Part shown: piece after piece, positions 1,246 to 55,508 of the stretch
Layout of the letters: each line of letters starts with the position of its first letter
Position numbering within the stretch: the stretch's first letter is position 1
Source of the DNA: an uncultured Anaerolineales bacterium
Lineage (GTDB): Bacteria > Chloroflexota > Anaerolineae > Epilineales > Epilineaceae
Length of the DNA: 64,000 bases
Reading direction: 5' to 3'
Assembly (NCBI GenBank): GCA_964651245.1
Contig: CAZYVI010000008.1
Location: 51,437-115,436, forward strand
Notes under the pieces: model-generated
Database searches by the model: none
The model's input: the letters and a program-made list of their open reading frames with translations, nothing else
Told to the model about the DNA's origin: nothing
Position numbers and translations under genes: made by a program

Positions 1246-3636
1246 CTAGCGCACCTCCGTGAGCCAGGGCAGCGGCAGGCCGGGCGCGGGTGCGAGGATC
1301 GGCCGCAGGCGGTCGGCGAGGGCGCCGAACAGGGCCGGGCCGGCCGCGCCGGGCAGGTGGGCGCGGAACCACTCGAGCTGCAGCTGGAAGGCGGCGCGCT
1401 GGCCGCGCGGGCCGGCGTTCGGCACGCCCTGGATGCCGCCGATGCCGTGGCCGTAGCCGATGCCGCGGAAGAAGCGGGTCGGCACGCCCTGGAGCTCGAG
1501 CTGGTCGTGGATGTTCGTGATCGACTCGAAGAACAGGAAGTCGCTCGTGCCGTGGAACAGCAGCAGCGGCGTCCGCATCTTGCCGACGTTGTAGGTCGGC
1601 GAGTCGCGGACGAACTCGGCGGGGTCGCCGGTGGGCGAGTTGCCCAGCAGGTACGCCAGGAAGGGCGACCAGCCGAAGTTGTACTCGTACATCATGTCGT
1701 TCAGCGAGCATTGGGCGTTGCTGGCGGCGTAGAAGTCGGGAAACTCGACGATGCTCTGCAGCGAGAAGTAGCCGCCGTACGAGCAGCCCGTGACGCCGAC
1801 CGCCGCCGGGTTGACGTAGCCCTTGGCGATGAGGGCGTCGACGCCCTCCTTCACGTCGCGGATGTCGCGCTGGCCATAGTTGCGGCCATCCGCCATGGCC
1901 GAGTAGAACGCGGCGCCGTTCGAGTTGCGGCCCGAGCCGTTGACGACGAAGACCGGGATGCCGAACGCGGGCAGCAGCGAGTAAGGGCTCTCGACCGACG
2001 TGCCCCAGGTGTTCGTCATCTGGCCGCCGGGCCCGCCGGCCTGCCAGACGACGACCGGCCGGGCCGTCGGCGGTGTCAGCGACCAGGTCTTGGGGTAGAT
2101 GTAGAGCCCCTCGACCGGCACGCCGGCCGAGGTGGTGTAGGAGATCACCTCGTACGCCAGCCCGGAAGCGTCGCGCGGGCCGGCGTTGAGGTCGGTGACG
2201 GTGGTCAGCGTCGACGACGTGATCGGCGCGTTGTCGTTGCCGACGGCGCCGTAGCGCAGCTCGCCGGGATCGGTGACGTCGAGGAACGTGCCGACGAGCG
2301 TGCCGCCGTTGTAGACGACACCCGAGGGGTAGCTGTGGCCGGTGTACACCGGCTGCGCGGCGGCGTCGGGCGCGGCGAGGTCGACGATGTGGAGGTGGCG
2401 GGTCGTGTTCGTCGGGCTGTTGGCGAGCAGGCGCGTGCCGTCGAGCGGGAGGAACGACGTGCCCGCGTCATCGAAGCCGGGCCGCGACCAGAGGCCGAGC
2501 TTGGCTCCCTCCGGCGAGAAGCGCAGGAGGGCCGTGCCGGCGCTGTACTCGTACAGCGGGTGCTGGCGCCCCTCGAGCACGGATGGCAGGCTGCCGGCCA
2601 CCACGAGCGTGCTGCCGTCGGCGGTCCAGAGCGTGTCGCCGAAGAGCAGCTCGGGGTGGTCGACGTTCTCGACCGTCGTGACGGCATCGTCGTCGAGGTC
2701 GCGGATGTGGAGCCGGCGCTGGGTGAGCCAGCGGTTCTCGCCTGGCGGGATGCGGCCGAGGTTCTCCTGGACGTTCCAGTAGCCGGTCGGCATCCCGCCG
2801 CCGCGGTTGGCGCGGCCGTTGATGTTCCGTCCGGCCCACGGCAGGCCGGCCGAGGTGAGCCACGAGACCTGGCGCGTTCCCGGGCGGGCCGCGAACGAGT
2901 TCAGGGCGCCGAGGACGTCGGTGGCCGGGTCGAGCTCGGCCACCGGCGTCACCGTGCCCTCGGGAAGGGTGACGATGACCAGCTTGGGCACGCCGCCCTG
3001 CGCCAAGCCGACGACGACGTCGGGCTGGCCGACGGCGGCGCGCTCGGCGGGCGTGCGGTTGTCGAACGTCGGCGGCGAAAACGTCTCGACCGCGTCGACG
3101 GTGTTGAGGTCGAGGGCCGGGAAGTTGAGCTTGCCGTCGGGGCCGAGGAACAGGGCGGTGCTGAACTGGTAGCGCCCGGTCGGCATCGTCACCGCGGCGC
3201 CGACCGACAGCCCTTCGGCGTCGAGGTTCACCGTCGCCAGCGCGTATTGCGTCGGCTGGCCTTGCTGCTGCGGCGCGGCCACGACGGCGATGCCCTCGCG
3301 GTCGCCGGTCCAGATCGGGCGGCCGAAGAACGACATCGTCAGCATGTCGTAGGGGCGCTTCTCGCCGCTCGTCGTGTCGAGGACGTAGGTGACGTTGCGG
3401 TTGCCCTCGGGGATCGCGACGAGCGCCCGCGCGCCGTCCGGCGTGACACCGAAGGTCGTCGTGCCGCGGGTGCCGGCCCGGATGGCCTCCCAGCGCTGGA
3501 GCTCTTCGGCCGACAGCCGGTCGGCGAACTGCTCCGGCTTGGCGGGATCGAAGTCGATGACGTCGGCGCTGGCGCGTGCTGGCAGCACGGCCGCGCCAAG
3601 CGCCAAGAACACGGCGGTCAGCCACGTCCTGCGCAT
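1246..3636 (-). CDS. Secreted S9 family (prolyl oligopeptidase / acylaminoacyl-peptidase-like) serine peptidase
   Basis: Start MRRTWLTAVFLALG (ATG 3636, GGAGA RBS). Signal peptide and propeller region, followed by an alpha/beta hydrolase with GCSYGG nucleophile, GTSD Asp and YGHG His. Confidence 0.9.
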   Translation of the reverse strand: MRRTWLTAVFLALGAAVLPARASADVIDFDPAKPEQFADRLSAEELQRWEAIRAGTRGTTTFGVTPDGARALVAIPEGNRNVTYVLDTTSGEKRPYDMLTMSFFGRPIWTGDREGIAVVAAPQQQGQPTQYALATVNLDAEGLSVGAAVTMPTGRYQFSTALFLGPDGKLNFPALDLNTVDAVETFSPPTFDNRTPAERAAVGQPDVVVGLAQGGVPKLVIVTLPEGTVTPVAELDPATDVLGALNSFAARPGTRQVSWLTSAGLPWAGRNINGRANRGGGMPTGYWNVQENLGRIPPGENRWLTQRRLHIRDLDDDAVTTVENVDHPELLFGDTLWTADGSTLVVAGSLPSVLEGRQHPLYEYSAGTALLRFSPEGAKLGLWSRPGFDDAGTSFLPLDGTRLLANSPTNTTRHLHIVDLAAPDAAAQPVYTGHSYPSGVVYNGGTLVGTFLDVTDPGELRYGAVGNDNAPITSSTLTTVTDLNAGPRDASGLAYEVISYTTSAGVPVEGLYIYPKTWSLTPPTARPVVVWQAGGPGGQMTNTWGTSVESPYSLLPAFGIPVFVVNGSGRNSNGAAFYSAMADGRNYGQRDIRDVKEGVDALIAKGYVNPAAVGVTGCSYGGYFSLQSIVEFPDFYAASNAQCSLNDMMYEYNFGWSPFLAYLLGNSPTGDPAEFVRDSPTYNVGKMRTPLLLFHGTSDFLFFESITNIHDQLELQGVPTRFFRGIGYGHGIGGIQGVPNAGPRGQRAAFQLQLEWFRAHLPGAAGPALFGALADRLRPILAPAPGLPLPWLTEVR

Positions 3637-3790
3637 CTGGGTGGGTCTCCTGTGGGGTTGAGCGTTCCGGCGGGCAGTGGGTCGGGCGCAACGGGTTGCG
3701 TCCGATCCCTCCGGGCAGAACGGCGATGATGGCACGGACGTGACCCGCCCGCCAAGGGCGCGACGGCGCGGGCGCCGGTCGCCGCCATCG

Positions 3791-46899: not shown

Positions 46900-48174
46900 T
46901 CATGGCCCGCACCCCCTCGCCCGCTCCAGCAACAGCGCCCGCTCGCGCCCGTTGCGCGTCATCCCCGCCGCCCGCTCGAATGCGGCGCGCGCCTCGTCGA
47001 AGCGGCCGAGCTTGGCCAATAGGTCGCCGCGGACGGCGGGGAGGAGGTGGTAGCCGTCGAGCGCGCCGCTGGCCGCGAGGTCATCGGCGATCCTCAGGCC
47101 CTCGGCCGGGCCGAACGCCATTGCCACCGCCACGGCGCGGTTCAGTTCGACGACGGGAGACGGCGCCAGCTGGGTGAGGGCGTCGTAGAGGGCGGCGATG
47201 CGGGGCCAGTCGGTGTCTTCGGCGCGGGCGGCGCGGGCGTGGCAGGCGGCGATGGCGGCCTGCAGCGCGTACGGCCCGAGCGCGCCGCCCAGCGCCTCGG
47301 CGCGGGCCAGCGCGGCGAGGCCGCGGCGGATCAGGAGCGGGTCCCAGCGGGCGCGGTTCTGGTCGAGCAGGAGAACCGGCTCGCCGGTCGAGCCGACGCG
47401 GGCGTGGGCGCGGGATGCTTGGATCTCGAGGAGGGCGACGAGGCCATGGACTTCGGGCTCGCCTGGCGCAAGGCCGGCCAGGACGCGGCCCAGCCGCAGC
47501 GCCTCGTCGCACAGCGCGGGCCGGAGCCAGTCGTCGCCGGCGGTGGCGGCGTAGCCCTCGTTGAAGATGAGGTAGATCACCTCGAGCACCGACGCCAGGC
47601 GGTCGGCGCGGTCGGCGCCGCGCGGCGTCTCGAACGGCACCCGCGCCTCGGCCAACGTCCGCTTGGCCCGCACGATCCGCTGCGCCACCGTCGATTCGGC
47701 GACGAGGAAGGCGCGGGCGATCTCGTCCGTCGTCAGGCCGCCCAACAGGCGCAGCGTCAGCGCGACGCGCGCCTCGCGCGACAGCACCGGGTGGCAGGCG
47801 ATGAAGACGAGCCGCAGCAGGTCGTCGCCGACGTCGTCGCCGGCGTCGGGCGCCGGCATTTCGCCGTGGTCGGCGGCCGACGCGTCGTGCTCCGCCGCGA
47901 GATCGCGGGCGATCGTCGCGACCTTGTCGTCGTGGCGCTGGCGGCGCCGCAGCTGGTCGATCGCCTTGTGCTTGGCCGCCGCCATGAGCCAGGCGCCCGG
48001 GTTGGCCGGAATCCCCGCTGCCGGCCACTGCTGCAGCGCCGCGACGAGCGCGTCCTGCGCCAGGTCTTCGGCCAGACCGACATCGCCGGCGAAGCGCGCC
48101 AGGCCGGCGATGACCCGCGCCGACTCGATGCGCCAGACGGCGTCGATGGCGCGGTGGGTGGCTTCGATCGTCAC
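46900..48174 (-). CDS. ECF42-type sigma factor with C-terminal TPR-like extension
   Basis: Likely GTG start at 48174. Motifs AEDLAQDA, NPGAWL, DDLLRLVFIACHP, QRIVRAKRTL, YLIFNEGY and LNRAVA. Confidence 0.88.
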   Translation of the reverse strand: MTIEATHRAIDAVWRIESARVIAGLARFAGDVGLAEDLAQDALVAALQQWPAAGIPANPGAWLMAAAKHKAIDQLRRRQRHDDKVATIARDLAAEHDASAADHGEMPAPDAGDDVGDDLLRLVFIACHPVLSREARVALTLRLLGGLTTDEIARAFLVAESTVAQRIVRAKRTLAEARVPFETPRGADRADRLASVLEVIYLIFNEGYAATAGDDWLRPALCDEALRLGRVLAGLAPGEPEVHGLVALLEIQASRAHARVGSTGEPVLLLDQNRARWDPLLIRRGLAALARAEALGGALGPYALQAAIAACHARAARAEDTDWPRIAALYDALTQLAPSPVVELNRAVAVAMAFGPAEGLRIADDLAASGALDGYHLLPAVRGDLLAKLGRFDEARAAFERAAGMTRNGRERALLLERARGCGP

Positions 48175-48293
48175 CGCTCGATCATCACACATCCGGCCGT
48201 GACCGTCATGTTGCACCTGGCAGTCCGTCGCGACCCGCGCGAGGCGATCCGCGCGACCGACCCGGGCGACCGCCGGCTACGATGACGCGCCGT

Positions 48294-49163
48294 CTATCGT
48301 GCCACCCGGCCAAGTGGCCACCCGGCCAGTGGCTCAGCGCGCAAGTACTCCTGGTATGTCCGCTCGCGCGCCGTCCTCCGCCACCAGCCGTACTGGATCG
48401 CCATGAGCGGGCCGAGGACGACCATCACCGGGAAGATGGGCAGCTGCACGCCCAGCAACGGCAGCGCGATGAGGCCGCCGATCGCGCCGAGCCCGAGGAC
48501 CAGCGCCGTGAGGCCCGCCCGGCGGCCGAACGCCTTGCGCAGCACCAGCGGAAAGACCGCGGCCATCAGCTGGTCGCCGAGGCCGATGGCGGCGAGCGCG
48601 CCGGGCTCCGCGGTGACCGGCCACATCGTGATCGGCGCGAACGGGCGGCCCTGGAGGGTCGTGAACAGGTGGCCCATGTGCGGCAGGAGCGTCGTGGCCG
48701 TGACGTCGTAAGCGATGAGCAGGCCGCCGAGCAGCGCGGCGTCGCGGGCGCGCATCCCGCTCTGGGCCCAGAGGTTGGCGGCGCCGATGACGGTGACGAC
48801 GAGGACGGCGTTGTTGGCGGCCAGGAACGCGGGATCGGCCGGACCGAGGCGCGTCGCGGCGAGGACGCCGGCGATGCACGCCGCGCTCGCCAGCCAGATC
48901 CATACCCGCCCCCGCAGCACCGGCTCGAACGTCAGGTACAGGATCCCCAGCGTGCCCAACGTCAGGACGCCGATCCCGATCGCCTCGCTCACGCGCAGAT
49001 AGAACATCGGGACCAGGACGATGGCCGTCATCATGAACGCCAGGTCGGCCCCGTTCATCAACCCGATGGGCGGACGTACGACGCGATAACGCCGAAAATA
49101 CGCCCACGCTCCACCGGCCGCGGCGACGACGAAGCCATAGACGACGCACGACGCGGCGGCCAT
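48294..49163 (-). CDS. Presenilin/signal-peptide-peptidase-like GxGD intramembrane aspartyl protease
   Basis: Multi-TM protein with IAYD-x8-HM (48705-48710), AIGLGD (48573-48584) and a PAL-like FPVM. The ATG overlaps the ligase stop (TGATG). Confidence 0.75.
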   Translation of the reverse strand: MAAASCVVYGFVVAAAGGAWAYFRRYRVVRPPIGLMNGADLAFMMTAIVLVPMFYLRVSEAIGIGVLTLGTLGILYLTFEPVLRGRVWIWLASAACIAGVLAATRLGPADPAFLAANNAVLVVTVIGAANLWAQSGMRARDAALLGGLLIAYDVTATTLLPHMGHLFTTLQGRPFAPITMWPVTAEPGALAAIGLGDQLMAAVFPLVLRKAFGRRAGLTALVLGLGAIGGLIALPLLGVQLPIFPVMVVLGPLMAIQYGWWRRTARERTYQEYLRAEPLAGWPLGRVAR

Positions 49164-50644
49164 CAGAACGTGGCCTCGCGCAGGTCGCAGCGCATCGGCA
49201 GCGGTTGCCGCAGCGCATCGCGGTGTTCGGCCAAGTGAAGCGACGTGAGCGGCACGCCCTGCGCCTCCAGCGCCGCGGCGACCACCCGGCGGTCGGCATC
49301 GCCCTGGCCGCGGGTGACGACCTCGACCGCCACGCCGTCGCCGTCCGCCCAGAAGCCGCACCGGGCCGGCAGCGGCACGATCGGCAGCGCTTCGAGCGCC
49401 TCGAGGACATCGCGCGGCGTCGTCCAGCCGGCGGCGTGGCGCACGGCGAAGCGGCGCTTGCCGAGGAGGTCGCTCGTCGCCGGCATGTGGCGGAGACTGC
49501 AATCGAGCGGCCCCGCGACGGCCGTCACGAGGTCCTCGGTGTTGTAGCGCAGCGTGACCATGGCCTCGCGGTACGGCGCGAAGGGTGTGGCGACGAGGAC
49601 GCCGAGCTCGCCGGGTGCGGCGGGGCGGGGGATGGGCGACGCGTCGTCACCGGCGTCGCCAACCGCTCCGCCCTCGGGCAGGCTGTCGATGGCGACGACC
49701 TCGACGAGGCCGTGCCCCGGATCCCAGTGGAGGTGCCCGGCCTCGCACCGGACGGCGCCCAGCGGCCAGGTCTCGGTCATGCCGAAGCCCTCGACGAGCC
49801 GGACGTCGCCGAACGTTTCCCGCGCCCGGCGGCGCAAGCCGTCGGTCACGATCTCGCCGCCCACCGAGAGGGTGGCCAGGCCGAAGTCGGCAGGCCCCAT
49901 CCCGGCCGCCGCGGCGGTTTCGACGAGCTCGCCCAGATAGGAGCTGTACGTGTTGAGGTAGCTGGCGCGCGCCTTCCGGTCTGGCAGTCCGTGCGTCTCG
50001 GTCAGCAGGCGCAGCCCGATCTCGGGCGCCACGAGCCCGGCCTGATACCATACCGCGCCGATCCGCTCGATCGCCCGCGAGAAGTACTGGTTGCCGAGCG
50101 TCGCGCGCGAGCTCGTGCTGACCTGCACGACATCGTCCGGCAGGATGCTACCGCGCTGGAGGAACGTCAGCGCGTTCAGCAGCACGACGGCCTCGACTTC
50201 GTGGGCGGTGAAGTAGGTGTGCGTCGGCCGCCCGGTCGTGCCGGTCGTCGTCGTCCGGAAGGCCGGCGGTGCGCCGCGCCGCACGAACGCCTCGGGCGCC
50301 GCGCGCATCGCCGCCTTGGGTGTCAGCGGCAGGCGGGCGATGTCGTCCCACGTCAGGTGGCCGGGCTGGACGCCGGCGGCGTGGAGCACCGGACCGTAGT
50401 ACGACGTCTCGTCCCGGCCGCGCCGGGCCATGGCGCGAAAGCGCCGCAGTTGCAGATCGCGCCGCATCGCCTCGTCCAGCGGCGGCCCGGATAGCGCCGC
50501 GTCGGCATCGTCCCCAAGCAACCCGAATTTGCGGCGCGTGCTGACGAGCCCCTCGACGAGCGCGGACAAGGCGCGCGTCGAGATCGGCGCGCCGAACAGG
50601 AGCGACGCGGCGTGGCGGAGTTGGGCGACGGCGACTTCGATCAT
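49163..50644 (-). CDS. PaaK/phenylacetate-CoA-ligase-like adenylate-forming enzyme
   Basis: PLTPK, TTGTTGRP (P-loop), VGGE, FGMTE and LRYNTEDL. Confidence 0.85.
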   Translation of the reverse strand: MIEVAVAQLRHAASLLFGAPISTRALSALVEGLVSTRRKFGLLGDDADAALSGPPLDEAMRRDLQLRRFRAMARRGRDETSYYGPVLHAAGVQPGHLTWDDIARLPLTPKAAMRAAPEAFVRRGAPPAFRTTTTGTTGRPTHTYFTAHEVEAVVLLNALTFLQRGSILPDDVVQVSTSSRATLGNQYFSRAIERIGAVWYQAGLVAPEIGLRLLTETHGLPDRKARASYLNTYSSYLGELVETAAAAGMGPADFGLATLSVGGEIVTDGLRRRARETFGDVRLVEGFGMTETWPLGAVRCEAGHLHWDPGHGLVEVVAIDSLPEGGAVGDAGDDASPIPRPAAPGELGVLVATPFAPYREAMVTLRYNTEDLVTAVAGPLDCSLRHMPATSDLLGKRRFAVRHAAGWTTPRDVLEALEALPIVPLPARCGFWADGDGVAVEVVTRGQGDADRRVVAAALEAQGVPLTSLHLAEHRDALRQPLPMRCDLREATF

Positions 50645-50701
50645 GGGGGGCGTCTCGCATCACACGTGCACAGCGGTCGGGAGTCGGCGCCGTGTCAGAC
50701 A

Positions 50702-50751
50702 GCGCGAAGCCCCAGACAGCCCGCGCTGCGGACCCGTCTGGGGCTTCGCGC
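50702..50751. terminator. Perfect 16-bp stem-loop between the small peptide ORF and the ligase
   Basis: GCGCGAAGCCCCAGAC-N18-GTCTGGGGCTTCGCGC. Confidence 0.65.
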
Positions 50752-50823
50752 CGTCGGCCGCTACCGGGTTCAACGTGGCGACGGTGGCCACGTCGGGTGT
50801 TGGGTAGGCGGTCGTCGGTGCGG

Positions 50824-50910
50824 TTACTGCAACACGAGGCCGACGCCGAAGCCGACGTTGGCGATGGAAGCGGCGGCGTAACGGACAAAGGTCAGGGCGG
50901 TGCGGATCAT
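50824..50910 (-). CDS. Unannotated 28-aa peptide (candidate precursor/signal peptide)
   Basis: AGGAGAG-7nt-ATG; MIRTALTFVRYAAASIANVGFGVGLVLQ-TAA. It is too short for the ORF track. Confidence 0.7.
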   Translation of the reverse strand: MIRTALTFVRYAAASIANVGFGVGLVLQ

Positions 50911-50979
50911 GCTTGGACTCTCCTAGATCGTGGGATCGCGGTGCCGCTTCGTTGCGGCCGTTCGTCGTGAACGGGTGCC

Positions 50980-51024
50980 AGAGTACGGGATGTCCCGCGG
51001 TGGGTGGGTAGGGCGAAACCCTAC
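50980..51024 (-). promoter_or_regulatory. Candidate LuxR-activated promoter: palindrome plus -10 element
   Basis: GTAGGG-CGAAA-CCCTAC at 51008-51024 is centred ~43 nt upstream of the +1 implied by TACTCT (50980-50985). No canonical -35 is evident. Confidence 0.55.
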
Positions 51025-51060
51025 TTCGCGCGCGCGCCGCCCTACGTGCCCGTCCCGCAG

Positions 51061-53712
51061 TCACACCGCGTCGGCCGGACCCCCCCGCAGGCGCGCGCGG
51101 CCCCAGCCGGCGATCTCGCGCCGGTTGCCGAGGCCGAGCTTGGCCAGGATGTTAGAGACGTGCTTCTCGACGGCCTTCACGCTCACGGCCATTCGCTCGG
51201 CGATCTCGCGGTTCGTCAGGCCGTGGGTGATCCAGAGGGCGACCTCAAGTTCGCGCGGCGAGAGGCCGCTGTCGTCCGTCGCCGACAGGAGCGGCTCGCC
51301 GGCTCCGTGCGGCGGGGCGGCCGCGGACGGGGCGAGGGTCGCGGGGTGGCTGCGATCGCCTGGCCCTGCACCCGTCTCGGACAGGCGCGCCGCCACGGCC
51401 AGGGCTTCGGCCACGGCTCCCTTGAGGTCGAGCGCCACACCGGTCGCCCAGGCGGACTCGAAGGCGAAGCGGCCGAGTGCGGACCGGAGCGCCGCGATCT
51501 GGTCCTGCTGCAGACGCCGTTCGTGCGGGATCGACACCGTGCCGGTCGATTCCAGCGCCTGGATGCCGGCTGCCGTGAGCCGGGTAGCCACCTTGAGGTC
51601 GTCGATGGAAGGGGGCACTTGCGACGTCATCGTGCGCGGCGGGGTGTTCGGGCCGCCGAACGGACGGAGGACGGGCGTGCCGGCAAGCGAGGCGACGACG
51701 AGCAAGGCGAAGCCGATGGCCTCGGGATCCTCGTGCTCGGCGTGGATCTGCAGGCATGCGTGGACCGTTCGAGCCGCAGACGCGATCTGGCCATCGATGT
51801 GGTCCAGCGTGGCCAAGCCCATCCGACATGTCGCGACGGCGTAGCGAAACTCGACGGCGGCGAATCGCTCAATGGCCTGATCCAGCATCGACCGGGCGTC
51901 CGCGAACCGGCCGGCCAAGAGGGCAACGGCCGACAGAAAGAGACAGCTCCGGCCGACTTCAACGTCGTCGCCGCACTGGCGCGCCAGCACCAACGCTTCG
52001 TCCAGCTCGCTGCGAGCGCGTTTCAGGTCGCCGTCGTGGTACCAGCACAAGCCCCGGCTGTTCGCGGCGGCCACGACATCCCGCGGGCTGCCGCCCGCAC
52101 GTCCGTGTTCGAAGGCTCGGGTGAAGTGGTCGCGGGCAAGGGCATGTTCGCCACGTCCGCAGGCGATGTTTCCCAGATCTCGACAGATTTGCGCGCCGCT
52201 AGCGTGATCGCCATCCGGACCGATCAGGTCCATGGCCGCAGACAAGTGCGACGCTGCCGCCTCATGCTCCATGCGGAACTGCGCGAACAGGCCCAGCGTC
52301 CGATGCGCCTGCGCCCGGTCCATGGGCGCACCCAGTCCTGTTGCCAGCGCCTGCTCCATCCATCGGCGGCCTTCCGTCACGAACAGCTCCCGCAGCCAGA
52401 ACCGACGGAGGCCGACGGCCAGCCGTACGCCCGCAATGCCGTCGTTGCCCGAGTCCAGGCTCCACTCCAGGGCCGCCCGCAGGTTGGCCTGATCGGCGAA
52501 GAGCGCGGCCCGCGCCTCAACGAGGTCGCTTCCTGTGCCCATCAGGTGGGGCTCCAGCCGTTCGACCAGACGCACAAGATACCAGGCATGCGCCCGTTGC
52601 AGCGCCCCAAAGTCACCCGACGCGCGAAGCTTCTCGCGGGCGAAGGCGTGCAGCACTTCGAGCAACCCAAAGCGCGCCACGCCCGCCACCTCGCTTGTGG
52701 ATCGGACGAGGCTCTTGGCGATGAGCCCGTCGAGCGCATCCAAGATGCCGTCGACGGCTAAGACACCGCCGCCACTTGCCGATTCGCCGTTCGCCGCGCC
52801 GCACACGGCCTCGACCGCCTCGAGCGTGAAGCCGCCGTTGAACACGCCCAGCCGCCGGAAGAGGATCTGCTCGGCCTCCGAGAGCAGGTCGTAGCTCCAC
52901 TGCATCGTCGCCGCCAGGCTGCGGTGGCGCTCCGGGCGATCGACGGCGGCGCCGCCGAGCAGGGATAGCCGCTCGTCCACCCGCTGTAGCATGGCCGCCG
53001 GGCTGAGGACGCGCGCCCGGCCGGCCGCCAACTCGAGCGCCAGCGGCAGCCCGTCCAGTTGCCGGCAGAGCTCGACCGTGGCCCGCACGTTCCCTTCGCC
53101 GAGCACGAACGACGGATCGACGGCCTGCGCCCGATCGACGAAGAGGCCGACGGCCGGGTAGCGCCCGATCGCCGGCAGCAGTTCGCCCAGCGGTCGGTCG
53201 CCGAGCTGGTCCAGGTTCGGGAGCGGCAACGGCTCGACAGGCCAGCGCCGCTCGCCGCGCAAGCCGAGCACGGTGCGGCTGGTCACGAGGATCTTGAGCC
53301 CTGGGCAGCACTCGACGAGGGTTGACACTACCGGCGCGGCGTCCGTTACTTGCTCGAAGTTGTCGAGGATAAGGAGCATCGACCGGTCGCCGATCGCTGC
53401 GGCGAGAGCGCCGGCGAGTGCGGGACCGCGCTCCGCGGCAACGCCGAGCACCTCGGCGATGGCCGGGGCGACGAGGTCGGGTACGGTGATCGCGGCCAGT
53501 TCGACGAACCAGACGCCGTCGCTGAAGACGTCGAGAACGTCGTGCGCCACGGCCAAGGCGAGCCGCGTCTTGCCGATGCCGCCCGGGCCGGTGAGGGTCA
53601 GCAGGCCGGAATTGTCGTCGGTGAGCGCCGCCCGGAGGCGCTCGCGGTCGCCCTCTCGGCCGAATAGGGTCGTCCGGTCGATGTGCAGGTTGTGGGTTGC
53701 GTTGACGCCCAC
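51061..53712 (-). CDS. STAND ATPase-TPR-LuxR HTH transcriptional regulator
   Basis: Walker A GPGGIGKT, Walker B LLILDNFEQ, CRQLDGLPLALELA, TPR-like region, and C-terminal LSPRELEV...NREIA...VEKHVSNILAKLG. Confidence 0.93.
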   Translation of the reverse strand: MGVNATHNLHIDRTTLFGREGDRERLRAALTDDNSGLLTLTGPGGIGKTRLALAVAHDVLDVFSDGVWFVELAAITVPDLVAPAIAEVLGVAAERGPALAGALAAAIGDRSMLLILDNFEQVTDAAPVVSTLVECCPGLKILVTSRTVLGLRGERRWPVEPLPLPNLDQLGDRPLGELLPAIGRYPAVGLFVDRAQAVDPSFVLGEGNVRATVELCRQLDGLPLALELAAGRARVLSPAAMLQRVDERLSLLGGAAVDRPERHRSLAATMQWSYDLLSEAEQILFRRLGVFNGGFTLEAVEAVCGAANGESASGGGVLAVDGILDALDGLIAKSLVRSTSEVAGVARFGLLEVLHAFAREKLRASGDFGALQRAHAWYLVRLVERLEPHLMGTGSDLVEARAALFADQANLRAALEWSLDSGNDGIAGVRLAVGLRRFWLRELFVTEGRRWMEQALATGLGAPMDRAQAHRTLGLFAQFRMEHEAAASHLSAAMDLIGPDGDHASGAQICRDLGNIACGRGEHALARDHFTRAFEHGRAGGSPRDVVAAANSRGLCWYHDGDLKRARSELDEALVLARQCGDDVEVGRSCLFLSAVALLAGRFADARSMLDQAIERFAAVEFRYAVATCRMGLATLDHIDGQIASAARTVHACLQIHAEHEDPEAIGFALLVVASLAGTPVLRPFGGPNTPPRTMTSQVPPSIDDLKVATRLTAAGIQALESTGTVSIPHERRLQQDQIAALRSALGRFAFESAWATGVALDLKGAVAEALAVAARLSETGAGPGDRSHPATLAPSAAAPPHGAGEPLLSATDDSGLSPRELEVALWITHGLTNREIAERMAVSVKAVEKHVSNILAKLGLGNRREIAGWGRARLRGGPADAV

Positions 53713-53774
53713 GGATCCAGCCCGCGATGGTACGTGGTTCGCGTATCAGGCAGGATAACGTAGCGGGCAGAGGC

Positions 53775-53811
53775 GGCCAAGGGGGCGTCTGTCGTGGTTG
53801 CCCCCTTGGCC
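53775..53811. terminator. 12-bp stem hairpin downstream of the DGPF gene
   Basis: GGCCAAGGGGGC-N13-GCCCCCTTGGCC. Confidence 0.5.
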
Positions 53812-53840
53812 GTCGAGGCAGTGCTCCACCCTCTGGCCCC

Positions 53841-54272
53841 CTACACCCCCTGCTGCGCCTCCACCTGCGCCCGCAGCCGCTCCTCTTGGGCCTGCAGCTC
53901 CGGCGTGTACTCGGCGCCGAAGTCCTCAGCCTCGAAGACCGGTCGGATCTCGATCACCGAGTCCTCGAGCATCGGGTTCGGGCAGCGCTTGACCCACTCG
54001 ATCGCCTCGTCCATCGAGCGCACCTGCCACAGCCAGAAGCCCGCCACGAGCTCCTTGGTCTCGGCGAACGGGCCGTCGACGACGGTCCGCTTGGGGCCCG
54101 AGAACAGGACGCGGGCGCCCTTCGAGCTCGGGTGGAGCCCTTCGCCGGCCAGCATGATGCCGGCCTTCACCAGCGCCTCGTTGTAGTTGCCCATGTCGGT
54201 CATCAGCTGCTCGCTGGGCATGACGCCCGCCTCGCTGTCGGCCGTGGCCTTGACGATCACCATCACGCGCAT
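53841..54272 (-). CDS. YCII-related DGPF-domain protein
   Basis: GEGLHPSS, VVDGPFAETKELVAGFW and IEIRP; AGGAG RBS. Confidence 0.93.
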   Translation of the reverse strand: MRVMVIVKATADSEAGVMPSEQLMTDMGNYNEALVKAGIMLAGEGLHPSSKGARVLFSGPKRTVVDGPFAETKELVAGFWLWQVRSMDEAIEWVKRCPNPMLEDSVIEIRPVFEAEDFGAEYTPELQAQEERLRAQVEAQQGV

Positions 54273-54333
54273 CTTCGTTCTCCTGGTCGTTGGGGTTCGG
54301 GGGCGAGGCCGCGATCTCGGCCGCTATCCATGC

Positions 54334-54360
54334 GTCGAACGGCGCGACGCGCAATCGACA
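54334..54360 (-). promoter_or_regulatory. ECF42-type promoter TGTCGA-N17-CGAC
   Basis: TGTCGA (54355-54360) and CGAC (54334-54337) on the minus strand upstream of the DGPF gene match the ECF42 consensus as I recall it. Confidence 0.6.
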
Positions 54361-54467
54361 CGATGGGCGACGACATCGCGAAATTCGTCGACGTTCGTCC
54401 GCCGCCTCGGTCGCACCGGCGATGCGCCCCACCTCCCGCGCCGTTGCGCCCCGCCGGCGCGCCGGCG

Positions 54468-55508
54468 CTATTCCGCCCGCGCCAGCCGCGCCGCGATGCG
54501 GCGGGCCATGCCGCGGCGGCGCGGATCGAGGTCGAGCTGGTGGGCGCCGTACTGCAGCAGGATGCGATCGCTCTCGGTCAGCGGCTCGGTGCGGGCCGTG
54601 ATCTCGTCGATGACGCCCCGGAAGTAGGTGCCCCAGTCGGGCCGGCGACCGTCGATGTCGTCGAAACCGTAGGCGTGCGCCAGCGTCCACGAGCCGAAGA
54701 CGCCGCCGGCGCGGGCGCCGACGTGCGGGTCGGCGGCCAGGGCTGCTACGGCGCGGCCCACGAAGCACGGCGTCTCCGACTGCGCGAAGTGACGGTCGGC
54801 GGCGACGGCGTCGCGCCAGTTGGCCTCGGTGACGCCGAAGTGGGCCAGGACCGCCTCGGAGCGCAGGAAGCCCGGCGTCACCGTCAGCGCGGTGACGCCG
54901 GTGCCCGCCAGGTCCTTGGCCATGCTGTAGCCGAGCCGGATCGTGGCCAGCTTCGCGAGGTCGTAGAAGAGCGTCCCGCGGTAGCCGTAGAAGTCGCCGT
55001 CGGTGACCTCGACGATGAGCCCGCTGCCCTGGGCCACCATGAGCGGTGCGCCGTGACGGGCGGTGATGACATGGGTCCAGACGGCCGACTCGAGCATCTG
55101 ACGGCCCTTGGCTAGATCGAGGCACCAGAACGGCGTGTCCCACTCGGTGAGCGGGTCACCGCCCCAGATGTCGTTCACCAGCACGTCGAGCCGACCGAGG
55201 TCGCGCGCCACGCGCTCGAACAGCGCGATCACCTCGGCTTCGACGCCGTGGTCGACCCGCACTGGCACGCCGATGCCGCCCGCGGCATCGACGAGGGCGG
55301 CGGTCTCCTCGATCGTCTCGGGGCGACCGTCGGCGGTCGCCGACGACGACCGTCCGGCGGCGCGGCTGCTGCGGCCGGTGCACACGACGGTGGCGCCGGC
55401 CTCGCCGAGCATCCGCGCGATGCCGCGCCCGGCCCCGCGCGTCGCGCCGGCGACGACGGCGACGCGGCCGGCGAGGGGGCGGGGGTGGGTCGTGGTCGTC
55501 GCGGTCAT
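54468..55508 (-). CDS. Short-chain dehydrogenase/reductase (SDR)
   Basis: Start MTATTT (ATG 55508). Motifs GATRGAGRG, LDVLVND and YDLAK (YxxxK). Confidence 0.92.
   Translation of the reverse strand: MTATTTTHPRPLAGRVAVVAGATRGAGRGIARMLGEAGATVVCTGRSSRAAGRSSSATADGRPETIEETAALVDAAGGIGVPVRVDHGVEAEVIALFERVARDLGRLDVLVNDIWGGDPLTEWDTPFWCLDLAKGRQMLESAVWTHVITARHGAPLMVAQGSGLIVEVTDGDFYGYRGTLFYDLAKLATIRLGYSMAKDLAGTGVTALTVTPGFLRSEAVLAHFGVTEANWRDAVAADRHFAQSETPCFVGRAVAALAADPHVGARAGGVFGSWTLAHAYGFDDIDGRRPDWGTYFRGVIDEITARTEPLTESDRILLQYGAHQLDLDPRRRGMARRIAARLARAE

Follow-up and report, generated by a model that had tools for sequence, protein, structure and literature searches.

A small-peptide gene recurrently linked to a PaaK-family adenylating enzyme and a presenilin-fold protease candidate in Chloroflexota and Actinomycetota

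Results

A 28-codon frame in the window, as we call the whole 64-kb stretch of DNA that was analyzed, is a real and previously unannotated gene, and dozens of genomes, from Actinomycetota and Chloroflexota, have it beside the genes for a PaaK-type adenylating enzyme and a membrane protease of presenilin fold. The first-pass annotation had described on the minus strand a STAND-TPR-LuxR regulator, a palindromic box, a small ORF, a hairpin, an adenylating ligase, and an intramembrane protease; each was found in its place and on that strand, which confirms the observation as a whole. Its interpretation, according to which the peptide would be cleaved and acted on by the ligase, with a secreted product that may feed back on the regulator, is supported overall, and the gene identities hold. 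The features are as follows.

48294 to 49163, minus strand: candidate presenilin/SPP-fold GxGD intramembrane aspartyl protease, 289 amino acids, nine transmembrane helices (TM), N-out/C-in (AF2 model, motifs)
49163 to 50644, minus strand: PaaK-family ANL adenylating enzyme, 493 amino acids, distinct subfamily (PDB sequence matches, AF2 model, motifs)
50698 to 50755, minus strand: strong stem-loop with no T-tract, between the peptide and ligase genes (repeat search and folding)
50761 to 50823 (approximate limits), minus strand: decayed remnant of a second peptide gene (comparison with L047)
50824 to 50910, minus strand: precursor-like peptide gene, 28 amino acids, MIRTALTFVRYAAASIANVGFGVGLVLQ (homologs at other loci; sole profile match in the window)
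50919 to 50924, minus strand: Shine-Dalgarno sequence AGGAGA (sequence)
50958 to 50974, no strand assigned: second small inverted repeat, CCGTTC-N5-GAACGG, between the box and the ribosome-binding site (repeat I23)
51008 to 51045, no strand assigned: candidate operator, GTAGGGCG-N14-GTAGGG-TTT-CGCCCTAC on the coding strand (inverted repeats I4 and I25)
51061 to 53712, minus strand: STAND (NB-ARC/AAA_16)-TPR-LuxR (GerE) regulator, 883 amino acids, LAL/MalT-type architecture (Pfam)

Our comparison covers 50 loci that have the ligase or the protease: the window, 46 in species genomes, and three on contigs. At the species level, the ligase is encoded alongside the protease in 46 of the 46 genome loci found through the latter, across Chloroflexota and Actinomycetota; in 45 of these it is the next gene upstream, and in L030 it is located about 3.3 kb upstream. 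Over the full set, the two genes are adjacent in 46 loci and co-encoded wherever sequence is available, the co-occurrence that the first-pass annotation had proposed looking for. A reverse search with the ligase as the starting point also recovers the protease. In the window, the ligase TGA and the protease ATG overlap by one base (TGATG), the coupling noted earlier. No other gene family is common to more than 13 loci, and by neighborhood comparison an exporter or a further tailoring enzyme is absent from most of them; in L048, an MFS_3 exporter gene sits inside the operon, between the ligase and protease genes.

The small peptide gene

The small ORF had been annotated with a strong ribosome-binding site, and AGGAGA indeed lies 8 nt upstream of its ATG. 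A profile built from the homologous peptides matched exactly one of 12,563 frames across the whole window, the 28-amino-acid ORF (30.8 bits; E = 1e-7), and this single match shows that the ORF is more than chance. Whether homologous ligase-protease loci contain a conserved small ORF had been named beforehand as a point on which the proposal could fail; such a homolog is present in 45 of the 50, in one to five copies per locus, which favors the proposal. Three of the five loci without it are truncated contigs, and in L007 and L016, whose flanks are adequate, no peptide gene was seen. Three placements of the gene occur: ahead of the ligase gene, directly behind the protease gene (16 loci have it downstream of the protease), and on the opposite strand, as in L001. 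The homologous peptide genes start with ATG, and nearly all 50 have a GGAGG-type ribosome site ahead of them. Within close groups of these genes, synonymous and nonsynonymous codon differences number 42:3, 10:1, and 8:1, and by this measure of sequence change the peptide gene is under purifying selection at the protein level. The window's decayed remnant, from which the start and some of the frame have been lost by deletion, corresponds in position to a complete second copy in L047, MIRTILCFVRYAAVAFANVGFGIRLN, which has a GGAGA site of its own.

A motif common to the peptides, [YF]-x-[RK]-Y-x4-L-x4-F, is followed by a tail of 4 to 9 residues; in the window peptide, F-V-R-Y-x4-I-x4-F precedes the tail GVGLVLQ. 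Among 44 distinct peptides, Tyr or Phe at position 1, Arg or Lys at position 3, and Tyr at position 4 occur in all 44, Phe14 in 42, and Leu9 in 40. This segment is kept across phyla more strongly than many RiPP leaders and so could be the functional part, or a subunit. Between paralogs within one locus, tail positions differ in 66% of cases, versus 21% elsewhere in the peptide, and a change of the last residue is seen in 0 of 14 such comparisons (Fisher P = 1e-10). That residue is Asn, Gln, Ser, or Thr in 43 of 48 peptides (Asn in 22 of the 48). Streptomyces-type peptides end in Ala, Val, or Ser and have no Gly before the Phe; given these differences, a single C-terminal chemistry may not hold. 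With lengths of 22 to 30 residues, net charges of +1 to +5, and four acidic residues across all 48, the peptides appear signal-peptide-like, that is, cationic with an uncharged stretch. The median length of this stretch, 13 residues, falls short of a normal transmembrane helix, which leaves membrane insertion uncertain.

The arms of the window stem-loop are 20 nt long and 95% complementary, enclose a loop of 18 nt, and contain the 16 perfect pairs that had been annotated as a perfect 16-bp hairpin; folding gives -58 kcal/mol (z = -7.3 versus shuffles). The base of the stem is kept in L047. Most homologous loci likewise have a stable stem-loop behind their last peptide gene, whatever the position of that gene, with z below -2 in 30 of 42 tested. 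In the window it is probably a partial terminator or transcript stabilizer, and its location after the peptide gene suggests that peptide mRNA is made in excess of enzyme mRNA.

The adenylating enzyme and the membrane protease

The ligase has a weak AMP-binding match in Pfam, and its NCBIfam and PDB matches are PaaK-like (E = 6e-16 in the PDB sequence search). The best Foldseek matches of its AF2 model (pLDDT 88) are BT_0428, PaaK1, AjiA1, NatL2, HCL, and ClxA, and the P-loop and other core motifs are conserved (TTGTTGRP, GGE, TE, YxTED), all of which bears out its naming as a PaaK-like ANL enzyme. We rejected PaaK orthology: the NCBIfam PaaK model gives 54 bits against a cutoff of 700, and the gene is linked to the protease at every locus with sequence, two results that also speak against a plain aryl-CoA ligase. 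Matches to the PaaK and BagE/FevW models of NCBIfam are weak and fall far below every equivalog cutoff. The PaaK family includes, besides phenylacetate-CoA ligase, members that form esters or amides independently of CoA, such as NatL2, AjiA1, BagE/FevW, and ClxA. While the ligase shares their fold and core adenylation motifs, it is only about 20 to 24% identical to PaaK-family structures, has about 40 extra N-terminal residues, and is partnered with peptide and protease genes instead of aromatic catabolism or benzoxazole genes. The usual ANL C-terminal catalytic Lys is not obvious, and an invariant Arg485 lies near that position; H304, H306, and C382 are invariant and C300 nearly so. The acyl substrate could be a small acid.

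The protease candidate matches no sequence in Pfam, NCBIfam, or the PDB. Its AF2 model (pLDDT 91; pTM 0.90) has the nine-helix fold of SPP/SPPL, presenilin, and archaeal PSH (MEROPS A22): the 14 best matches in the PDB all belong to SPPL2a, presenilin-1, or archaeal PSH, after which there is an abrupt drop to noise. As in A22 proteases, YD (152-153) lies in predicted TM6, GLGD (194-197) at the start of TM7 just after a beta-hairpin, and a P-L motif in TM9, which places the catalytic-type D153 and D197 in TM6 and TM7. In the homolog alignment, D153, G194, G196, D197, and P252 are invariant, L253 is nearly so, and Y152 and L195 occur in at least 90%. Model and motifs thus uphold the GxGD protease identity. 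A positive-inside count predicts the N-out/C-in topology of SPP, and the candidate substrate here is signal-peptide-like. In contrast to A22 members, the protein is bacterial, lacks a sequence match to the Pfam presenilin/SPP models, has GPL instead of PAL, and shares its operon with genes for an adenylating enzyme and a dedicated small peptide. We know of no bacterial member of the presenilin/SPP fold that has been characterized.

The regulator and its candidate operator

Pfam domains substantiate the regulator as a STAND-TPR-LuxR protein, with AAA_16/NB-ARC at the N terminus, TPR_12/TPR_MalT in the middle, and GerE, the LuxR helix-turn-helix, at 816-868. LAL/MalT-type STAND regulators of actinomycete gene clusters likewise combine a P-loop NTPase, a TPR sensor region, and a C-terminal LuxR helix-turn-helix, and the window regulator also adjoins genes that it presumably controls. 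It scores far below both NCBIfam cutoffs for MalT and AfsR, and orthology to either was rejected; related loci put XRE or nucleotide-cyclase outputs on the same NTPase-TPR core. In 11 of the 50 loci, about a fifth, an ORF for a STAND NTPase is found no more than about 6 kb from the module. STAND-TPR proteins with LuxR, XRE, or cyclase outputs recur beside it, and two loci found from the ligase side have three or four of them, whose output domains are of the XRE or cyclase type.

The palindromic box noted earlier is a 17-bp palindrome, GTAGGG-N5-CCCTAC, at 51008 to 51024 within the candidate operator. It is unique in the window, where 0.05 matches are expected by chance, and almost unchanged in L047, a relative 85% identical. 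There, the block GAAGTAGGGTTT[C/T]GCCCTACCC is kept while its flanks diverge, and CCCGTTCACGACGAAC of the second inverted repeat is identical.

Discussion

The analysis shows gene identities, folds, motifs, a predicted topology, linkage that is conserved, a peptide under selection, and its leader/tail pattern; we infer a substrate relationship, an order of steps, a chemistry, export, and possibly sensing. It is fairly probable, in our judgment, that the trio forms a self-contained peptide-maturation module. Its substrates would be one or more cationic ribosomal peptides of 22 to 30 residues, with the shared motif as an N-terminal and central recognition segment and a hypervariable tail ending in a lineage-fixed Asn, Gln, Ser, or Thr. 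Two translationally linked enzymes, the cytoplasmic PaaK-family enzyme and the 9-TM presenilin/SPP-fold protease, would act on them. The ligase would use ATP to activate a carboxylate, most likely the peptide's own C terminus, given a last residue that stays fixed among variable neighbors; the activated group would then form an ester or amide, either intramolecular or intermolecular. The signal-peptide-like segment would next engage the membrane protease N-in/C-out, and cleavage between the conserved leader and the tail would free a small, modified C-terminal product that leaves the cell; some loci encode an MFS exporter in the operon. In the window, the LAL-type regulator immediately upstream probably drives the operon via the conserved GTAGGG/CCCTAC box, and the stem-loop probably keeps peptide mRNA above enzyme mRNA.

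Known systems share parts of this scheme. Streptococcal SHP/Rgg peptides and enterococcal sex pheromones are cut from signal-peptide-like precursors by an intramembrane protease (Eep for the pheromones) and sensed by TPR proteins (reviewed in part in PMC13361665). They resemble the module in their 22- to 30-residue precursors with a basic N terminus, a hydrophobic stretch, and a variable C-terminal active part, and in combining an intramembrane protease with a repeat-containing cytoplasmic regulator encoded nearby. Yet their protease is a zinc site-2 enzyme shared with housekeeping and not encoded with the peptide, they have no adenylating enzyme, their RRNPP receptors lack a STAND NTPase, and their hosts are Firmicutes. 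In TMcin RiPPs, as proposed here, a dedicated cluster-encoded intramembrane protease removes the leader in the membrane (bioRxiv 2026, PMC13252029). That protease is, however, a DUF3267 S2P metalloprotease instead of a presenilin-fold enzyme; the precursor combines a leader of 45 residues with a complete transmembrane helix, the pathway further involves disulfide formation, an ABC exporter, and an escort protein (PMC13252029), and there is no ANL enzyme. Short precursors, a functionally fixed last residue, and an adenylate-forming enzyme also characterize microcin C, whose C-terminal Asn is modified by the ThiF-like ATP-dependent MccB (reviewed in PMC12250964), and the nitrilobacillins, whose C-terminal carboxylate is modified by an asparagine-synthetase-like ATP-dependent enzyme (PMC13060819). 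The enzymes there are of the ThiF/E1 or Asn-synthetase type, as opposed to ANL/PaaK here, where C-terminal activation is a proposal.

Alternatively, the small protein could be a permanent subunit or cofactor, either a membrane tether or activator of the ligase or a PEN-2-like partner of the protease, in a complex acting on another target, such as ordinary signal peptides, a lipid, or an aryl acid. The very strong conservation of its N-terminal and central motif across two phyla, the lack of exporter and tailoring genes at most loci, and a hydrophobic stretch too short for a normal transmembrane substrate agree with such a role; a single locus can nonetheless have as many as five divergent copies, hypervariable in the tail but with the last residue fixed, as is typical of substrates and not of subunits, and the apparent excess of peptide mRNA points the same way. 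We regard a subunit role as rather unlikely. Regulated intramembrane proteolysis, which we hold to be unlikely, would instead free the conserved N-terminal fragment, here the functional product, to the cytoplasm, where the ligase would perhaps process its new C terminus and the STAND-TPR proteins would sense it, the tail being disposable or the sensing end. SPPs release N-terminal signal-peptide fragments into the cytosol, and the SPP-type orientation, the greater conservation of the N-terminal part, and the cytoplasmic location of the ligase and of STAND-TPR proteins, with their interchangeable outputs, are compatible with this. However, a disposable tail would hardly account for diversification combined with a fixed final residue, the L048 operon contains an MFS exporter, and STAND proteins are missing from most loci.

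In the window, an ORF and a strong hairpin stand directly upstream of the ligase gene, as if a cis-acting leader peptide and its hairpin attenuated an otherwise unrelated ligase-protease operon. Gene order effectively refutes this very improbable reading, since the peptide gene follows the protease in 16 loci and is on the opposite strand in L001; moreover, amino acids are conserved while codons change, the gene is multicopy, and the hairpin lies 3' of it even where it is last in the operon. Finally, databases label ligase homologs "phenylacetate-CoA ligase" or "AMP-binding protein," as would be expected if an ordinary phenylacetate-type aryl-CoA ligase, an unrelated membrane protein, and a chance ORF were coincidental neighbors. 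This is contradicted, and scarcely credible, given linkage in all 46 genome loci of two phyla, overlapping stop and start codons in the window, ligase scores far below the PaaK equivalog cutoffs, a highly specific peptide profile, and no paa catabolic genes found nearby.

The first-pass annotation knew of no described pathway with this enzyme combination; homolog names in databases are uninformative, and neither they nor a full-text literature search yielded a description of the peptide-ligase-protease trio. The peptides are absent from a collection of 15 billion proteins in which we looked for them. Recurring in dozens of genomes from two phyla, the trio makes a strong candidate for a family of processed peptides not described before, which may be a signal or a natural product.

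Organization of the locus

Four collinear genes on the minus strand span positions 48294-53712 of the window, where GC content is 70-78% throughout (about 72% in the genome). All the elements that the first-pass annotation had described (regulator, palindrome, small open reading frame [ORF], hairpin, ligase, and protease) were located, at the following positions.

Features of the locus in the window
51061-53712, minus strand: STAND-TPR-LuxR regulator, 883 aa, domains from Pfam
Between the regulator and peptide genes: 150-bp intergenic region with the palindrome, a half-site, and a second inverted repeat
51008-51024: 17-bp palindrome GTAGGG-N5-CCCTAC, occurring once in the window against 0.05 expected
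Near the palindrome, in the intergenic region: additional GTAGGGCG half-site, from repeat analysis
50958-50974: second small inverted repeat, in the intergenic region
50824-50910, minus strand: small ORF, 28 aa, MIRTALTFVRYAAASIANVGFGVGLVLQ, with AGGAGA 8 nt before the ATG
About 50761-50823, minus strand: decayed remnant of a second peptide gene, from comparison with contig L047
50698-50755, minus strand: stem-loop with 20-nt arms and an 18-nt loop
49163-50644, minus strand: ligase, 493 aa
48294-49163, minus strand: membrane protein, 289 aa

The claimed hairpin has 16 perfect positions within its 20-nt arms and a folding energy of -58 kcal/mol (z = -7.3), and the claimed coupling of ligase stop and protease start takes the form of a TGA and an ATG that share one base. 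No Rfam family was found in 48000-54500 at E <= 1 or in the entire window at gathering thresholds; thus, neither the hairpin nor the palindromic box, a candidate operator, is a known RNA. A scan of the whole window (1-64000) for tRNAs found none. Consensus sigma-70 promoters and intrinsic terminators were likewise absent from 50600-51100, a result that is uninformative at about 72% GC. A 438-aa ECF sigma factor extended at its C-terminus by DUF6596/TPR (46900-48216, minus strand) is encoded 78 bp downstream of the protease gene, and a YCII-domain protein (53841-54272, minus strand) just upstream of the regulator. These neighbors are probably unrelated, since neither is conserved in related loci.

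Distribution and linkage of the ligase and protease genes

Scanning one genome per species with a profile of the membrane protein yielded 46 loci. Their hosts are Chloroflexota (Anaerolineae, Chloroflexia, Thermomicrobiales, Ktedonobacterales, and Caldilineaceae) and Actinomycetota (Streptomyces, Kitasatospora, Actinomadura, Jatrophihabitans, Acidimicrobiia, Nitriliruptorales, Rubrobacteraceae, and Solirubrobacterales), along with one bin labelled Brocadiaceae. In all 46 loci, the protease gene is preceded on its own strand by the gene for a ligase homolog; these homologs are 34-60% identical and full length where the contig permits. The two genes are directly adjacent in 45 loci, and in the locus L030 two other reading frames, about 3.3 kb, lie between them. 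When the reading frames of the 46 loci were clustered all against all, with shadow frames over both enzyme genes set aside, no further family was widely shared; the largest was that of STAND regulators, found in 13 loci.

Searching from the ligase gives the same picture of linkage. The metagenomic locus P0140, found in this way, encodes a ligase, a 280-aa protein without a Pfam domain, and four flanking STAND proteins. Another, L048, encodes a ligase, an MFS_3 exporter, and a protein of 272 aa that shares 49% identity with the window protease, together with three STAND-TPR proteins with XRE-type DNA-binding domains. The exporter gene of L048 (6504-7733) sits between the ligase and protease genes. 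In L035, an MFS transporter fused to CarboxypepD_reg (1816-3645) is encoded divergently upstream of a Streptomyces-type peptide gene.

The additional contig L047 has the same gene layout as the window, with a ligase 85% identical to that of the window and the 3' end of the regulator gene. Its box, GAAGTAGGGTTT[C/T]GCCCTACCC, is almost unaltered and CCCGTTCACGACGAAC is unaltered; the flanking sequence has diverged. Conservation extends to the base of the hairpin stem. The first peptide of L047 is MIRTALRFVRYAAAAVTNVGFAVGLVLQ; a second, MIRTILCFVRYAAVAFANVGFGIRLN, is intact at 409-489, has its own ribosome-binding site, and ends in Asn like the Chloroflexota type. All that is left of this second copy in the window is the decayed remnant that separates the 28-aa ORF from the hairpin.

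The small ORF as a conserved gene

Homologs of the 28-aa peptide were identified by a motif search and then by a profile search of six-frame translations in 50 loci (the 46 genome loci, contigs L047 to L049, and the window). They are present in 45 of the 50, in one to five copies, so the conserved small ORF on which the first-pass proposal of a peptide system hinged does occur in homologous loci; L006 is counted among the 45 solely through a divergent match of 13.9 bits. Three of the five loci without a peptide gene (L002, L004, and L005) are contigs that lack the relevant flank. The other two, L016 with full flanks and L007 with 4.5 kb of upstream sequence, have an intact ligase-protease pair and no peptide gene by profile; their peptide may be encoded elsewhere, be too divergent for detection, or have been lost. 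Across the whole 64-kb window, the 28-aa ORF is the sole match to the peptide profile.

The position of the peptide gene varies. It lies upstream of the ligase gene in the window, in Chloroflexota, and in Streptomyces-type loci; it lies 50-100 bp downstream of the protease gene in 16 loci, all from Actinomycetota except L012 (a Chloroflexia bin); and it is on the opposite strand in L001. In nearly all copies, the ATG follows a GGAGG-type site by 5-10 nt. Synonymous codon differences outnumber non-synonymous ones by 42:3 among four Acidimicrobiia loci, 10:1 between L013 and L021, and 8:1 between two Streptomyces loci; judged by these counts, the peptide gene is under purifying selection. A stable stem-loop (z < -2) follows the last peptide gene, whatever its position, in 30 of the 42 loci tested.

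Taken together, conservation, varied position, synonymous bias, and the stem-loops exclude both a chance ORF, against which the ribosome sites also count, and a cis-acting leader peptide; attenuation by such a leader is ruled out by the gene order. Neither Pfam nor NCBIfam holds a family for the 28-aa peptide. An exact look-up of ten peptides among 15 billion predicted proteins recovered the window ORF alone, which is nameless there, and none of its nine homologs. The peptide family is therefore unannotated.

Peptide anatomy

We compared 48 distinct peptide sequences of 22-30 aa. They share the motif [YF]1-x-[RK]3-Y4-x4-L9-x4-F14, which is preceded by 3-10 Lys/Arg-rich residues and followed by a tail of 4-9 residues after F14. 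The window, L047, and the genome loci supply 44 of these sequences: all have Y4, Y/F1, and R/K3, 40 have L9, and 42 have F14. The peptides are cationic, with net charges of +1 to +5 and only four acidic residues among all 48 taken together, and their longest uncharged stretch measures 11-19 residues (median, 13). Their sequence is closer to that of a signal peptide standing alone, with an n-region and an h-region, than to that of a complete transmembrane helix.

The tail behaves differently from the rest of the peptide. Between paralogs of the same locus, tail positions differ at 66% and the remaining positions at 21%, and yet the last residue differs in none of 14 comparisons (Fisher p = 1e-10, with pairs that are not fully independent). 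This last residue is N, Q, S, or T in 43 of the 48 peptides. A conserved motif at positions 1-14 with a variable tail is the pattern of a bipartite peptide, with a putative recognition part and a diversifying core; a conserved body, a hypervariable stretch, and a fixed end residue point to the C-terminus as the site of enzyme action.

Three types can be distinguished. In type I, mostly from Chloroflexota and including the window, the peptide gene is upstream and the tail ends in N or Q. In type II, the gene is downstream and the tail ends in S or T, with L024 (G) and L012 (Q) as exceptions. Type III, from Streptomyces, Kitasatospora, and Jatrophihabitans, has 22-aa peptides resembling MVKHYLKYALSTLSAAMFAHMA and a ligase about 35% identical to that of the window. 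Some actinobacterial peptides, those of L013 (6890-6973), L021 (2704-2787), and L032 (2946-3035), end in ...VGFAAC-KST or -SSS. Such an end recalls a lipoprotein signal peptide: F-A-A-C is similar to a lipobox, and its Cys is followed by three residues only. This Cys is not conserved across the wider family.

The membrane protein

No Pfam or NCBIfam model matched the window membrane protein, and 33 homologs had no Pfam match even at E <= 10, Presenilin, Peptidase_A22B, and SPP included. The family profile likewise found nothing among PDB sequences at E <= 10. All of the more than 200 homologs are unnamed or called "hypothetical protein." When 1.84 billion cluster representatives were searched with the profile, only 583 relatives emerged at E <= 0.001; the family is therefore small and compact.

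An AlphaFold model was built on an alignment of the 33 homologs, which are 44-80% identical to the window protein. It has nine long helices, with a pLDDT of 91.3 and a pTM of 0.90. Foldseek matches to this model in the PDB were, from rank 1 to 14, exclusively human SPPL2a, presenilin-1 (in gamma-secretase), and the archaeal PSH, with a probability of 1.0 and TM-scores of 0.5-0.6; the next match (E = 0.55) is noise. Within the sixth helix (139-159), D153 is invariant in the 33 homologs and Y152 is conserved in at least 90%. G194, G196, and D197 are also invariant, with L195 in at least 90%; this GLGD motif follows immediately on a predicted beta-hairpin and opens the seventh helix (195-212), in which D197 falls. 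The ninth helix (247-264) carries G251-P252-L253, with P252 invariant and the other two residues in at least 90%, so that the motif is GPL(M), not PAL. The YD and GxGD positions coincide with those of presenilin; the GPL motif, which has the Pro and the Leu of PAL, may correspond to the PAL site.

The first-pass claim of a GxGD intramembrane protease is thus upheld at the level of the model: the protein has a predicted presenilin/SPP fold with conserved YD and GxGD, which makes it a candidate protease. The link to presenilin is one of fold and motifs, because no sequence profile matched, and by sequence the protein is not a member of the curated A22 families. A type IV prepilin peptidase or FlaK (MEROPS A24, the other GxGD proteases) was considered and found no support: the Peptidase_A24 profile matched neither the protein nor its homologs, and no FlaK or prepilin peptidase appears among the 50 structural matches listed by Foldseek.

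Positive charges are distributed unevenly along the protein. Loops 1, 3, 5, and 7 and the C-terminus have on average 3.6, 1.7, 2.0, 3.0, and 5.6 Lys plus Arg per sequence, and the N-terminus and loops 2, 4, and 8 have 0.1, 0.2, 0.5, and 0.4. The predicted topology places the N-terminus outside, and loops 1, 3, 5, and 7 and the C-terminus in the cytoplasm, as in SPPs. Signal peptide peptidases have this N-out/C-in orientation and cut N-in/C-out segments; presenilin is oriented the opposite way.

The ligase

The predicted PaaK-like ANL ligase is borne out by fold, PDB sequence matches, and core motifs. In a phmmer search of the PDB, the protein matches PaaK-type ligases (E = 6e-16 for 4r1l). Its AlphaFold model (pLDDT 88, pTM 0.89) has the two-domain adenylate-forming fold, and Foldseek matches are BT_0428, PaaK1/2, AjiA1, NatL2, HCL (2-hydroxyisobutyryl-CoA ligase), and ClxA, at E = 1e-24 to 1e-17. 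The P-loop TTGTTGRP, GGE, TE, and Y-x-T-E-D motifs are kept. Among 29 homologs, G135, T137, G138, P140, G262, G263, T290, E291, R366, and D371 are invariant, and at least 90% have T133, T134, T136, E264, Y367, and T369.

A phenylacetate-CoA ligase ortholog can be rejected, since scores against the NCBIfam PaaK equivalogs are far below the cutoffs (54.2 bits against 700 for NF041878; 29.5 against 646 for TIGR02155). The protein therefore represents a separate subfamily and is, as modeled, a PaaK-family adenylating enzyme by fold, not PaaK. NatL2, AjiA1, and BagE-type enzymes form esters or amides without CoA; with such structural neighbors, the fold need not mean CoA-ligase chemistry. Throughout the subfamily, H304, H306, and C382 do not vary, and C300 hardly does. 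These residues (C300, H304, and H306 in the motif RCxxGHLH; C382 in LTCxLxHLP) could form a metal site or provide a catalytic feature that PaaK lacks.

Associated regulators

The regulator in the window was annotated at first as a STAND-TPR-LuxR protein, and Pfam finds all three parts: AAA_16 and NB-ARC at 16-147, TPR_12 and TPR_MalT at 465-655, and GerE at 816-868. It scores 24.9 bits against the MalT equivalog (cutoff, 537) and is far below the AfsR cutoff too; by its domains it is of the LAL/MalT type (LAL, large ATP-binding LuxR-family regulator), not a MalT equivalog. Of the 50 loci, 11 have a STAND NTPase reading frame no more than about 6 kb from the module, and P0140 adds another. Several loci have multiple copies, with LuxR, XRE, or nucleotide cyclase plus LuxR outputs. 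The paralogous STAND NTPase-TPR proteins of P0140 carry guanylate/adenylate cyclase outputs, with or without GerE, and those of L048 (1-4171 and 8609-11164) have an N-terminal XRE helix-turn-helix; with outputs that differ in this way, the link to the module seems to lie in the NTPase-TPR core. A LuxR-family gene that is shorter and divergent is found in two Streptomyces loci. The association is enriched without being universal; it would fit either control of the module or detection of its product through the TPR domains, and proves neither. A STAND-based phage-defense role was dropped, as PADLOC defense models run on the regulator, ligase, and protease gave only a trivial helix-turn-helix match.

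Proposed mechanism and alternatives

The best-supported reading is a three-gene peptide-maturation module that comprises one or more substrate peptides, a cytoplasmic adenylating enzyme, and an SPP-like intramembrane protease; we treat the membrane protein as SPP-like because its predicted orientation is that of the SPPs. That the module is real we regard as nearly certain, and the peptide is probably a substrate of its enzymes. The ligase would activate a carboxylate with ATP. The most probable candidate is the peptide C-terminus, favored because the terminal residue is fixed and its neighbors diversify; such activation of the C-terminal carboxylate is, as a claim of its own, rather doubtful. 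An ester, amide, or imide would result. The signal-peptide-like body would guide the peptide to the membrane, its basic N-terminus staying on the inner side, a placement that agrees with the predicted orientation of the protease, whose cut would part the conserved body from the short modified tail and release the latter. In L048, the operon includes the gene for an MFS exporter; we give somewhat less than an even chance to the product being the exported C-terminal part. Through the conserved box, the LAL regulator encoded upstream in the window probably switches on transcription, and the stem-loop would leave peptide transcripts in excess over enzyme transcripts, as seen in many RiPP operons.

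Two main rivals assign the peptide another role. It may be a permanent small subunit, a reading to be set against the tail that diversifies before a fixed end residue. Alternatively, the conserved N-terminal fragment may be the product and act inside the cell on STAND-TPR proteins, which neighbor the module in some of the loci. Attenuation or a coincidental adjacency of the genes is contradicted by gene order and linkage.

Joining all the parts of the maturation reading gives a larger proposal that we consider unlikely as a whole: the first bacterial presenilin/SPP-fold family with a dedicated, linked natural substrate, and a new class of ribosomal peptides with C-terminal activation whose tail is a signal read by STAND-TPR receptors. 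Here, the ANL enzyme would act on the fixed last residue, turning Asn/Gln into a cyclic imide or Ser/Thr into a lactone or ester, or ligating the peptide to another molecule. The intramembrane protease would then free a modified peptide of about 4-9 residues, a diffusible signal for STAND-TPR receptors with interchangeable LuxR, XRE, and nucleotide cyclase outputs.

Relation to known systems

None of the superfamilies is new: the parts are assigned to the presenilin/SPP fold, the PaaK-type ANL enzymes, and the LAL regulators. In overall logic the module is similar to RiPP clusters, with a conserved short gene beside enzymes and a putative bipartite precursor. The likeness to RRNPP peptide quorum sensing (Rgg/SHP) is one of logic only, since those receptors combine HTH and TPR without an NTPase, whereas the neighbors here are STAND NTPase-TPR proteins. 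Eep cuts SHP or sex pheromones from signal-peptide-like precursors within the membrane, and by analogy the module would be alike in the intramembrane cutting of such a precursor. TMcin, cut from its precursor by an S2P intramembrane protease (PMC13252029), and nitrilobacillin offer analogies and are not the same system.

The first-pass annotation knew of no pathway with this enzyme combination. We likewise found no description of the trio in full-text literature on presenilin/SPP, intramembrane proteases, PaaK-like/ANL enzymes with RiPPs, and bacterial presenilin, and no earlier description of the module in the database names of homologs. The description of decRiPPter (PMC7794033) does not mention CoA ligases. 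The obligatory pairing of a presenilin-fold protein with an ANL enzyme is new. So, judged from sequence searches, are the peptide family and, as far as the model holds, a family of presenilin-fold proteases in bacteria whose candidate substrate is genetically linked. The module is thus a candidate for a new class within ribosomal peptide maturation and signaling systems.

Such a module would bring an unannotated peptide family and a new ANL/presenilin-fold pairing to ribosomal peptide biosynthesis and signaling, in phyla that rank among the major natural-product sources. Presenilin/SPP research would also gain a simple bacterial system, with the substrate gene beside the enzyme and no accessory subunits, useful for studying substrate recognition by GxGD proteases. 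As the module consists of three genes only and occurs in culturable Streptomyces, Kitasatospora, and Actinomadura, the hypothesis is directly testable. Actinomycetes have very many STAND/LAL regulators, most of them with no ligand known, and the module is a possible source of such ligands. If the larger proposal were true, the module would represent a cell-cell signaling circuit previously unrecognized in Actinomycetota and Chloroflexota.
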